In this document: positions 42,250 to 44,879 of the stretch, in pieces
Layout: each line of letters starts with the position of its first letter
Position numbering within the stretch: the stretch's first letter is position 1
Assembly: GCA_965279525.1 (NCBI GenBank)
Contig: CBDIIB010000005.1
Location: 32,001 to 96,000 of the forward strand
DNA from: Tagaea sp.
GTDB taxonomy: Bacteria > Pseudomonadota > Alphaproteobacteria > CACIAM-22H2
Length of the DNA stretch: 64,000 bases
Direction of reading: 5' to 3'
Program-made: the position numbers and the translations under genes
The notes under the pieces: generated by a model
Told to the model about the DNA's origin: nothing
The model's input: the letters and a program-made list of their open reading frames with translations, nothing else
The model's database searches: none

Positions 42250-42334
42250 CATTTACTGAATACAATCATAGGGCGTTGACGAATCGGTAACCAAAAGTGC
42301 ATTCCCCGTTGCGTACCGAACGGGGGAACGTCCG

Positions 42335-43066
42335 ATTCATTTCGCCGGCAAACCGAGGCTCCAGGCACCCGCCGCGGCGACCGCGCGCGGCTGGTTCGAC
42401 TTCGAAGGTGCTGTCGGCAGCGGCCATTCGAATTCGCGCCAGGACGCCATCCGTCTCGAAGGCATCCTTGCCAACAGCGGCGATCTCGACCTCGTCGCGT
42501 CGGACGGGCCGACCGGCCATTGGGGCGCTGCCCTCGACCGGGCGATCCGCCGCTACCAGCACCGCCACCGCCTGCATGTCGACGGCATCCTGCGGCCGGG
42601 CGGTCAGACGCTGGCGCTGATGTACGCGACGATGGCGCGCGCACTCGACGGCCTTTCCGTGCCGACGCCCGAGGAGATCGACCGCCACCACGCGTCGATG
42701 GCGGCGGGAACGGGCCCGCGCATCGCCATCGTGCCGCAGGTCAAGCTGCTGGCGATCCAGGACCTGCCCGACGTGTCCGACGCCGACCGTGCGGCGAACG
42801 CAGCCCAGATCGACTGGATGCTGCACAACTGGACCGGCCTTGGCGGCGTTCCGTCGCATCTGGCGTTCTACGTGGTCAGCCGCGGGCGCGCGGGCGTGGC
42901 GCAGGTGCGCGATTTCATCAAGCAGTACGCCGCCGTCCGCCCGCACGCGACCGACATCCTCGTCTTCGCGATCCTGCGCGCCCTGCCTGACAACGCGGCC
43001 CGCGTGCGCTTCGTCGGCGGCGCCCCCGGCGGCTTCCGCCCGGCGGGCACGCGGCTGGTGCGGTAG
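42335..43066 (+). CDS. Peptidoglycan-binding-domain protein; probable ATT start or damaged start
   Basis: Frame open from 42272; GPTGHWGAALDRAIRRYQHRHRLHVDGILRPGGQT lies upstream of first ATG (42620); GGGGGA 7 nt before ATT. Confidence 0.65.
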   Translation: MHFAGKPRLQAPAAATARGWFDFEGAVGSGHSNSRQDAIRLEGILANSGDLDLVASDGPTGHWGAALDRAIRRYQHRHRLHVDGILRPGGQTLALMYATMARALDGLSVPTPEEIDRHHASMAAGTGPRIAIVPQVKLLAIQDLPDVSDADRAANAAQIDWMLHNWTGLGGVPSHLAFYVVSRGRAGVAQVRDFIKQYAAVRPHATDILVFAILRALPDNAARVRFVGGAPGGFRPAGTRLVR

Positions 43067-43098
43067 GCGTCTGGCGTAAATCTTCTGGGCTAATATTC

Positions 43099-43155
43099 TT
43101 GACAATCTGAAGATGTTCCGACATCGTCAGAGCCAGTCAGGCGTGCTCTTTGACA
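43099..43155 (+). promoter_or_regulatory. Sigma70-like promoter followed by boxA-like antitermination motif
   Basis: TTGACA-N17-CATCGT; TGCTCTTTGACA at 43144-43155 versus boxA TGCTCTTTAACA. Confidence 0.55.
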
Positions 43156-43230
43156 TGGTGAAAAGGCCGCACCATGCCGGGTGATCGAGACCGGATAACC
43201 GGGTGCGGCCGGTTCTGACTACAAAATCCC

Positions 43231-43435
43231 GAAAACGCGCGCGACGTCTCCGTCTCATCGATGAATTCGAGACGGATCAACGGGTTGGCGAGGAGACGGT
43301 AACGTCCCGTCTCCTCCCGTCTCGCAAATCTTGCGTCAACTGAAACGCGAAGACGTAAACGTCAACGCGTTGCGCATCAACGGGTTGGCCAGTTGACGGT
43401 CAACTTGCGTCAACGCCCGTCAACCAAACTTTGCG
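43231..43435. repeat. Two-unit tandem repeat, 100-bp period, with IHF-like core and swapped internal motif
   Basis: ATCAACGGGTTGGC at 43276 and 43376; CGTCTC copies in unit 1 correspond to CGTCAA copies in unit 2. Confidence 0.85.
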
Positions 43436-43442
43436 GAGCCCT

Positions 43443-44126
43443 TCAGCCGATATCGCCCGCCGTGTTGGTGTGCGACAGGTTGTAAATCCCCCGGATCGCA
43501 CCGGCCCTTGCACCCGCCGCGATCAGCGCGCCGTCGCCCAGCTCCACCTGCGCCAGATGTTCGAGCGCGCCCCGGTCGTAGCCGCACGCGACGAAGATCC
43601 AGTCGGCCACCGCATCGGCACCGCCCCGGATCTTCTGCTCGGTCGTGGCGGCGATCTTCGGGGTCTGCGTCTCAAGCAGGTGGCCTGCCGTCGTGCCGGC
43701 GCGCGCGGCGACGAGCTTCGCAAGGCCGCGCAGATGGTCGCGCAGTTTCGGTGCGGCACCCTCGGCGGGCGACAGCCGCACCGTCAGCGCGTGGCGTGCC
43801 AGCGCCCCACCGTGGCTTTCCAGCACGCGGCACTGGCTGCGCACCATGTTGCGGTGGTGCGGCATCATTTTCGTCGACCAGGGCGTGGGCGCGTTGAGGC
43901 GCTTGAGGTACCCGTCCGACACCAGCGTCTCGTAGGCCTCGAGCTCGTACATCACGAAGTAGCCGTCGCCGCCGTCGGCCGCCGCCCAGCGCGCCCCGCG
44001 CAGGAACCCCGGCACCGACATCCGCTCGGGGAAATGCTCGTGGCTGTGCCAGTTCTCGAATTCCGCGCGATGGGCGGGTGCGATGTCCCACCACATCGCG
44101 ACCGCACCCTTGCCGAGCAGCGCCAT
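43443..44126 (-). CDS. Hypothetical protein, EthD/DUF4286-like dimeric alpha-beta barrel
   Basis: EFENWHSHEHFPERMSVPGFLRGARW...YFVMYE. Confidence 0.7.
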   Translation of the reverse strand: MALLGKGAVAMWWDIAPAHRAEFENWHSHEHFPERMSVPGFLRGARWAAADGGDGYFVMYELEAYETLVSDGYLKRLNAPTPWSTKMMPHHRNMVRSQCRVLESHGGALARHALTVRLSPAEGAAPKLRDHLRGLAKLVAARAGTTAGHLLETQTPKIAATTEQKIRGGADAVADWIFVACGYDRGALEHLAQVELGDGALIAAGARAGAIRGIYNLSHTNTAGDIG

Positions 44127-44129
44127 CTT

Positions 44130-44879
44130 CTAGGCGGCCATCTTCACGAACGACGCGAGATCGTCGGCGAGGTCCGCCACGGCCGCGTCCCACAGCCGCT
44201 TGCCCGCCTCGATCGACGACAGGCTCGGGTTCGAGCCGATGCGCCCGTCGGGGAAGTTGCGCCGGTAGTCGTTCGCGTCGGTGAACTCGCCGCGCGGGGC
44301 GACCTCCGGGCTCATCTTCATGTGGCGCACGGCTTCCGGGTAGACCGCCCAGGTGAGCGAGACTTCCGACGGCGTGGCGTGGCTGCCTTCCTGGTCGCCA
44401 TAGAGCTCGCGGCTGATCGCCTTCACCTTCCCGCTGTCGTACCAGTTGCGCAGGCGGCAGCGCACCGCCGGCCGGTTCGACGCGCGCATCAGCGAAGCTT
44501 CCGCGTAGATCTCGGAGAACGCCGAGCTGAACGGCGCCACGTTGCCGCCATGCCCGTTGACGAAATAGAAATGCGTGAAGCCGTGGCGCGCGAGGCTTTC
44601 CACGTTGTCCTTCACGACCGCGATCAGCGTCGAGGGCCGCAGCGTCATCGAGCCCGCGAACGCCAGATGGTGCTGCGCCATGCCGACCGCGATGGTGGGG
44701 GCGACGAGCGTGCCGGTCTTCTCGCCCAGCTTCCGGCCGACCGCCTCGCCGCAGATCGCGTCGGTGCCGATCAGGCCGTTGGGGCCGTGCTGTTCGGTCG
44801 AACCGATCGGGATGATGATCGCGGTCGATTTCTTCAGGTAGGCCTCGACCTCCTGCCAGGTCTGCATGTGGAGCAGCAT
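44130..44879 (-). CDS. Creatininase family protein
   Basis: PIGSTEQHGP, GTD, NGHGGN, HA..SE. Confidence 0.92.
   Translation of the reverse strand: MLLHMQTWQEVEAYLKKSTAIIIPIGSTEQHGPNGLIGTDAICGEAVGRKLGEKTGTLVAPTIAVGMAQHHLAFAGSMTLRPSTLIAVVKDNVESLARHGFTHFYFVNGHGGNVAPFSSAFSEIYAEASLMRASNRPAVRCRLRNWYDSGKVKAISRELYGDQEGSHATPSEVSLTWAVYPEAVRHMKMSPEVAPRGEFTDANDYRRNFPDGRIGSNPSLSSIEAGKRLWDAAVADLADDLASFVKMAA

Follow-up and report, generated by a model that had tools for sequence, protein, structure and literature searches.

An intergenic region at 43067–43442 of the window (the whole stretch of DNA that was analysed, 64 kb) is flanked by a plus-strand ORF that ends at 43066 and by a minus-strand ORF that ends at 43443. 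The sequence-only reading of this locus had described the next gene as convergent, and this ORF (43443–44126 on the minus strand) indeed is. The promoter and the boxA-like motif of that reading can also be read directly from the DNA, with TTGACA at 43099–43104, a 17-nt spacer and CATCGT at 43122–43127, followed by TGCTCTTTGACA at 43144–43155. Further downstream are two cassettes of about 100 nt on the plus strand, the first (43240–43335) with the word CGTCTC/GAGACG and the core ATCAACGGGTTGGC at 43276–43289, and the second (43323–43435) with the word GTCAAC/GTTGAC and the same core at 43376–43389. These two units are made of internal words and are 73% alike over 63 nt, and the second ends 8 nt short of the stop codon of the convergent ORF. 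No intrinsic terminator was found after cassette 2, and transcription may therefore simply continue into the convergent gene.

The claim that only ORFs of fewer than 15 codons start in the leader is incorrect, as a 46-codon ORF with a GTG start lies at 43203–43343 on the plus strand; it is unlikely to be a gene, because it crosses cassette 1, which is of a different class in two of the three orthologous loci. The reported absence of rRNA and CRISPR elements stands, in that no rRNA, tRNA, repeat-spacer layout or Rfam family is present. A search for tRNA and tmRNA genes found none, and CRISPR-type identical repeats alternating with unique spacers are absent from the window array. When the covariance models of Rfam 15 were run over the intergenic region at E values up to 10, the only match was to FsrA, on the other strand and at chance level (17.1 bits; gathering score 80), and an Rfam search of 12 related loci at E values up to 0.1 gave no match. 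Elsewhere in the window, at 42273–42408 on the plus strand, there is a weak full-length match to the model of the Caulobacter sRNA CrfA (24.7 bits, gathering score 38, E 0.14), which is probably due to chance.

The candidate promoter belongs to a class that we refer to as type-1, in which TTGACA (with at most one mismatch) is positioned 43–49 nt ahead of boxA; 11 of the 26 loci described below, including that in the window, are of this type. An A/T-rich block upstream of the -35 hexamer, containing TGGGCTAATATTC (43078–43098, plus strand), is common to type-1 promoters, as seen by ungapped comparison of the paralogues and in three orthologous loci, and the -35 hexamer at 43099–43104 is invariant in four orthologues. 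The candidate -10 hexamer at 43122–43127 matches TATAAT at three of six positions, with A2 and T6 present. Hexamers with A2 and T6 and at least three of six matches, at a distance of 16–18 nt, are found at nine of the 11 type-1 loci versus 4.8% of random genome sequence. A consensus promoter scan of 42800–43700 returned no sites, because CATCGT fits TATAAT at just three positions. We infer an RNA start near 43134, such that boxA would lie about 10 nt into the RNA. One RNA-library contig covers 42963–43302 at about 90% identity, although this includes the promoter and the end of the upstream gene so that DNA carry-over is possible; among the RNA-library contigs, which are from relatives and of low depth, 43303–43418 is nearly uncovered. 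Two further promoter types are present at other loci, with a short GC hairpin directly before boxA.

Two palindromes were noted in these promoters. The spacer between the -35 and -10 hexamers of type-1 promoters contains a 10 bp palindrome, GAAC-N2-GTTC (for example GGAACGGGTTCC and TGAACGCGTTCC at other loci of the genome), that is imperfect in the window (GAAGATGTTC, 43109–43120) and looks like an operator within the promoter. A second palindrome, CCTAT-N-ATAGG, surrounds the -10 region in AT-rich promoters of solo cassettes that lack boxA (C4:1347055, C5:483838, C5:1711059, C4:1187630 and C2:327209), and is also present in the third type of boxA leader (C4:24998 and C4:174776).

Two long stems had been proposed for the leader, and both pairings are there, although neither is kept across orthologues. 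The outer stem A (plus strand) is formed by GGCCGCACC (43165–43173) and GGTGCGGCC (43202–43210), and stem B by AGTCAG (43135–43140) and CTGACT (43215–43220). The 93-nt leader is predicted to fold into both stems at -35.1 kcal/mol (z -1.81), with 10 of 200 shuffled sequences folding as well. In the orthologues, eight of nine (in the nearest), four of nine and three of nine pairs of stem A are kept, and for stem B four, one and two of six pairs. Stem A is outside the family consensus fold, and CTGACT, the 3' half of stem B, overlaps the conserved single-stranded motif GACTACAAA; as judged from these alignments, both stems are specific to the window locus.

What is conserved is a small hairpin of 4–5 bp, CCATGCCGG-N10-CCGG (43172–43194, plus strand), which is found behind boxA in 20 loci of six genomes. 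The consensus fold of 21 leaders recovered this invariant 5 bp CCGG hairpin alone. No covariation was detected in the helices of these 21 leaders, because the pairs of the inner hairpin are invariant apart from one G-U variant. In each of three other species, the orthologous locus retains the inner CCGG hairpin together with the core of boxA, the -35 hexamer and the A/T-rich block ahead of it. An A-rich motif, GACTACAAAA, between the leader and cassette 1 (43217–43226, plus strand) recurs in both paralogues and orthologues.

The boxA motif and its family in the genome and genus

The extended boxA of the window is CGTGCTCTTTGACATGGTGAAAAGG (43142–43166, plus strand), with the core GCTCTTTGACA at 43145–43155. 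We compared it with the copies in the ribosomal operon of this genome, where the 16S gene is at C5:1864411–1865901, the leader boxA (GCGCTCTTTGAAAAGTGAATAC) is at C5:1864185, 226 nt upstream of the 16S start, and the 16S-23S spacer boxA (GTGCTGTTTGACATGGTGAAGAGG) is at C5:1866420, with a second spacer copy at a contig end. The window boxA reads GTGCTCTTTGACATGGTGAAAAGG; over 24 nt its extended form shares about 92% identity with the spacer copy, its core is common to the window and the rrn leader copy, and the 11-nt core is invariant in orthologues. The gamma-proteobacterial boxA consensus, as given in passages of PMC5725501, is GYTCTTTAANA. The window boxA agrees with it at 10 of 11 positions, and the sole deviation from that published form, a G for A at position 8, is also found in the genome's own rrn copies. 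Allowing one mismatch, the 64-kb window has a single copy of the 12-mer TGCTCTTTGACA (0.05 expected), and five of 100 shuffled sequences gave at least one match. Judged by its sequence, TGCTCTTTGACA is more than a chance look-alike and is the same motif as the rrn boxA of this organism. A NusB-domain gene is located at C4:693853–694257 and the Rho gene at C5:1233896–1234117.

The sequence-only reading had suggested comparing the motif with the rrn leaders, following it to homologous loci, and looking elsewhere for the leader together with units of about 100 nt. The outcomes agree with its proposal, in that the window motif equals the organism's own rrn boxA, it is kept in three other species, and the leader and the units are seen together at 26 of 26 non-rrn loci.

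BoxA and its Nus complex are known mainly from rRNA operons, lambdoid phages, suhB and some CRISPR arrays, and in the leaders of those arrays boxA is taken to block Rho. A close relation is to the rrn antiterminator (boxB-boxA-boxC, with NusB, S10, NusA, NusG and SuhB), which has the same extended boxA and, as predicted for the window locus, places it close to a promoter and ahead of an untranslated RNA; the two other leader types moreover share a GC hairpin right before boxA in a boxB-like placing. The window locus differs in that no rRNA or tRNA follows and the predicted RNA is just 0.2–0.4 kb long, its type-1 leader is without a boxB-like hairpin, and there are 26 copies of the leader in contrast to one assembled rrn operon. 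In the suhB 5' UTR, a boxA outside of rrn is likewise taken to block Rho, according to passages of PMC5725501, in which the boxA survey is described as leaving non-coding RNAs out. As in the suhB and CRISPR leaders, boxA is here ahead of a predicted transcript that is not rRNA, but it belongs to a multi-copy family confined to one genus, and no repeat-spacer array is present. In sequence comparisons the leader behaves as an rrn leader and is neither a CRISPR leader nor a member of an Rfam family.

There are 58 copies of the core GCTCTTTGACA in the genome if one mismatch is allowed. In its extended form we picked 29 sites, of which three are rrn copies (one leader and two spacer) and 26 are other loci. 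A profile of the extended motif recovers exactly these 29 sites at 15.4 bits or more, with the next match at 9.1 bits; because the profile was built from the same 29 sites its members match by construction, and the gap in score below them is the only informative part. One more, diverged boxA was recognised by eye ahead of cassettes near C4:1061233. Of the 21 genomes of the genus, 15 have six to 25 copies of a 17-nt pattern of the motif and six have none; 29 genomes from 14 further genera in the family have no more than one copy each, and the reversed pattern, used as a control, gave no match in any genome. Related genomes are not independent, so the division into 15 and six genomes may merely reflect two clades of the genus. 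With some 26 additional loci in a genome, this genus has the rrn boxA at far more places than it has rrn operons, and all of these loci head cassettes free of genes; if this is correct it would be the largest cellular boxA regulon outside of rRNA, and a natural test of what a Nus-modified polymerase does when no ribosome is made.

The leaders point into convergent genes at 20 of the 26 loci, often within 50 nt of the stop codon, and six are not convergent; these orientations come from a crude GC3-based gene caller whose calls span only about 60% of the genome. Ten of the convergent neighbours were scanned and nine have a Pfam match, with unrelated functions (FliG, SoxZ, TctA, ALAD, RF-2 and others). 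No orientation bias relative to replication was seen, with 10 of the 18 loci with usable GC skew being co-directional. A search of the literature, covering articles without their supplementary files, found nothing on these boxA-cassette loci. A REP-like palindrome family (GTCGTGGATGCCCGG..CCGGGCATGACGG) often adjoins the leader loci (C2 near 39,700, C2 near 327,000, C4 near 1,347,300, L023:1660–1760, L036, L039 and L052); it is not found in the window, but two relatives have it in the intergenic region orthologous to that of the window locus.

Cassettes and the HTH genes that end in them

Each of the 26 leaders is followed by one to three cassettes that are about 100 nt long; these were recognised by pattern at 23 loci and, being degenerate, by eye at the other three. 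The order within a cassette is a word, its reverse complement, a core that begins (A/T)TCAA-N-GG, the reverse-complement word again, and the repeated word. The words are GTAAC(C), GTCAAC or CGTCTC, with direct repeats 10–11 nt apart, and the core has the form ATCAA-N4-TTR. Among 38 oriented cassettes, [AT]TCAA is at the fixed position in 30 (2% by chance) and the IHF-type core ATCAANNNNTTR is present in 10 (5e-5 by chance). The core is on the promoter side in all 26 cassette rows that have an upstream boxA. Leader types and cassette classes occur in free, mixed combinations, and at the locus of the window, where a CGTCTC cassette is followed by a GTCAAC cassette, two relatives have the GTCAAC cassette first. 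At nine further solo cassette loci the cassettes are preceded by AT-rich promoter-like sequence and no recognisable boxA, such that boxA is not obligatory.

Two other signals were considered and rejected. Avoidance of the cassette words, which would have hinted at restriction sites, is not seen, with observed/expected ratios of 0.97–1.14 in the genome. The excess of G-U pairs in sense folds (258 of 2003, versus 152 of 1843 in antisense folds) carries no information about RNA structure, because shuffled sequences reproduce it from base composition (about 280 versus 210).

A cassette of the GTAAC class without a promoter forms the 3' end of a 209-codon ORF (C5:193038–193664) whose product has an N-terminal HTH (Pfam HTH_23 and HTH_7) and no catalytic domain. 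Of the 21 genomes of the genus, 15 encode this HTH family, and they are the same 15 in which boxA is expanded. We examined 18 of 26 HTH gene matches and all 18 end in a cassette, a link between gene and cassette that is directly visible in the sequences. Moreover, in these 18 genes the class of the cassette word follows the HTH paralogue. The six A-type genes end in a GTAAC cassette, three distant A-type genes in a mixed GTAAC/GTCGC cassette, six B-type genes in a GTCAAC cassette, a single variant gene with a changed recognition helix in a GTCAC cassette, and the two D-type genes in seven or eight GTCGCG words with 11-nt spacing. Four GTCGC words at 11-nt spacing are found only in the four genomes with a D-type gene and in none of the 17 others. 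At least five GTCAAC cassettes are present in seven genomes, of which six have a B-type gene. The exception is the genome studied here, which has at least nine GTCAAC and five CGTCTC cassettes and yet the A-type gene alone; the B-type gene of the six relatives was not detected in its assembly, which is about 97% complete.

In nine metagenome relatives of the HTH protein, periodic word arrays lie just behind the gene in four (two of these being 36–41% identical to the query), a cassette is inside the ORF end in three, and two are without an array, compared with arrays in none of the nine upstream control windows. The family comprises 165 representatives at E values of 1e-10 or below, and ten clusters that were looked up carry no informative name, being labelled hypothetical or generically; longer relatives contain no extra Pfam domain. 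Because cassettes are located at the 3' ends of all 18 genes, with a word class set by the paralogue, the arrays are probably protein-binding sites. In a structure-database comparison the HTH resembles serine recombinases in their DNA-binding domains (match to 2r0q, E about 1e-5), and we suggest from these sequence associations that the cassette arrays are probably the binding sites of an HTH family with a resolvase-type DNA-binding domain. This association of paralogues with their own word arrays turns an anonymous repeat into a protein-site system that can be tested. Given that the array is tied to a family of DNA-binding proteins, an RNA product may not be the point of the locus.

The A-type ORF (C5:193038–193664, and its orthologues L116–L121, L129, L131 and L133–L136) runs through its own cassette, which would thus be translated as ..DKQVTVTCRNAL.. 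or similar, and the true stop codon of the A-type protein is uncertain. The gene that follows this ORF is always a PNP_UDP_1 phosphorylase.

In a predicted model of the HTH protein (mean pLDDT 74), a helix of 38 residues comes after the HTH. The top fold matches of this model are weak, and are to the phage protein 2ao9 (Z 6.3) and to phage small terminases (7uxe, Z 5.2), with both scores below the caution line; Foldseek gave an E value of 0.15 against the PDB, and values from 6e-4 against BFVD. Phage pac and cos sites and the small terminase (lambda cosB, P1 pac) are familiar cases of recognition sites that lie within or beside the gene for the protein that binds them, and the lambda origin is inside gene O and requires transcription. 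The likeness to the loci described here is in the location of the putative site at the end of the gene for its presumed binding protein, in the short repeats around an IHF-like core, and in a protein with an N-terminal HTH and a long helix, albeit with weak terminase fold matches. The difference is in the genomic context: no large terminase, replication gene or transposase is among the neighbours of the HTH gene, which are metabolic (PNP_UDP_1 and an aldolase-SDR fusion), and no relatives of the HTH protein were found in viral contigs.

Proposed role of the leader and alternative explanations

The interpretation that we favour, with a probability of roughly 0.6, is that the Nus/boxA leader carries RNA polymerase across an untranslated and probably protein-bound array without termination by Rho. 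An independent untranslated transcription unit, one of 26 paralogues, would then have its promoter and 5' leader at 43099–43226. A sigma-70-type promoter (TTGACA, 17 nt, CATCGT) would start the RNA near 43134, and boxA, about 10 nt into it, would load NusB-S10, together with NusA, NusG and SuhB, onto the polymerase, by analogy with rrn. The Nus-modified polymerase is predicted to resist Rho as it crosses about 300 nt that are unprotected by ribosomes, passing first the CGTCTC and then the GTCAAC cassette, the putative binding arrays for small HTH proteins. Behind the HTH genes, translation would shield the transcript until just before the cassette, and at the solo loci boxA would take over. 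Because there is no translation at the solo loci and boxA is found there, we read the leader as a Rho-proofing device for the array. This model predicts that the unit is transcribed, that Nus factors are loaded, that the polymerase resists Rho and that the cassettes bind protein, and the purpose would be either a cassette RNA or transcription through a protein-DNA complex. Taken together, the leader, the word array and the cognate protein family may amount to more than a variant of the known boxA leaders.

A more specific version of this interpretation, which we regard as doubtful, is that dozens of boxA-led, Rho-proof units fire into the cognate word arrays of HTH paralogues that resemble terminase small subunits, and that transcription is itself the function. 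In that case the dispersed arrays could serve as points of entry for DNA packaging or gene transfer, in the manner of pac sites or origins, or act as transcription-driven barriers where convergent genes end, with the RNA being a by-product.

If the RNA were instead the product, the locus would be an sRNA gene, in which a set of hairpins (formed by word and reverse-complement word) with alternative registers and a terminator-like last hairpin is protected or chaperoned by boxA, and is shared by the HTH genes as a 3' module. The fixed orientation of the cassettes is consistent with this, both relative to the promoter (26 of 26 rows) and behind the HTH genes (18 of 18 examined), as is the way in which GTAAC-class cassettes finish in a T-rich tail after a possible hairpin of 8–11 bp. 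The whole region also folds with a z of about -4, though equally on both strands, and the G-U variant in the inner hairpin would suit a structured RNA. We nonetheless consider an sRNA gene unlikely, in view of the DNA-binding fold of the associated protein and the helical 10–11 nt spacing of the words, which are often pure direct repeats without a complementary arm (seven GTCGCG, for example) and of which the repeated word is oppositely oriented in the relative L139. The lack of an Rfam match, and a G-U asymmetry that is accounted for by base composition, argue in the same direction.

The cassettes also resemble dispersed repeats. In E. coli, BIME-1/RIP elements consist of two REP palindromes around an IHF site, and the loci described here are similarly extragenic, mostly between convergent genes, and have palindromic words flanking the ATCAA-N4-TTR core. 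The differences are that they have a putative promoter and a boxA of their own, that their word classes track the HTH paralogues, and that direct repeats recur at the helical period. A DNA-only mosaic repeat of the BIME or MITE kind, with the promoter and boxA pieces hitchhiking between convergent genes and having no role in antitermination, would account for copies that are dispersed and intergenic, with 20 of 26 at convergent gene ends, for modules that are shuffled between loci, and for a cassette class that changes between species at the orthologous locus. The ends of some GTCAAC cassettes are inverted (CCGCAAAGTTTGGTTGAC), and the frequency of the IHF-like core ATCAANNNNTTR (10 of 38 cassettes, 5e-5 by chance) is likewise as expected of such an element. 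However, identity to the rrn boxA that extends beyond 20 nt, in as many as 26 copies and between species, would not survive drift, nor does drift fit with a fixed spacing from the -35 hexamer to boxA; there is no linked transposase, and the HTH protein is without a catalytic domain. A mosaic repeat is on these grounds decidedly unlikely.

The position of the loci suggests a further possibility, in which Rho-resistant antisense transcription into the convergent gene is a form of regulatory interference and the cassettes are incidental. This would explain why a convergent gene lies opposite 20 of the 26 loci, often with its stop codon no more than 50 nt away, and why no terminator follows cassette 2. 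It is very improbable all the same, as the convergent genes are unrelated in function, from FliG and SoxZ to TctA, ALAD, RF-2 and others, six loci are not convergent, and the same cassettes are found behind co-directional HTH genes. The proposition that boxA is merely the -35 box of a second promoter, prompted by the TTGACA contained in its core, is hardly tenable, since none of the 26 loci has a -10-like hexamer 16–18 nt behind boxA and the identical motif is also part of the rrn operon, in the 16S-23S spacer.

The gene arrangement on the convergent side of the window locus was also noted. A complete creatininase ORF (Pfam PF02633) at 44133–44879 on the minus strand ends in a TAG stop codon, and an ORF of 227 codons with no Pfam match (43446–44126, minus strand) begins one codon past that stop in the same frame. 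The two may be coupled genes, or represent read-through or a split gene.
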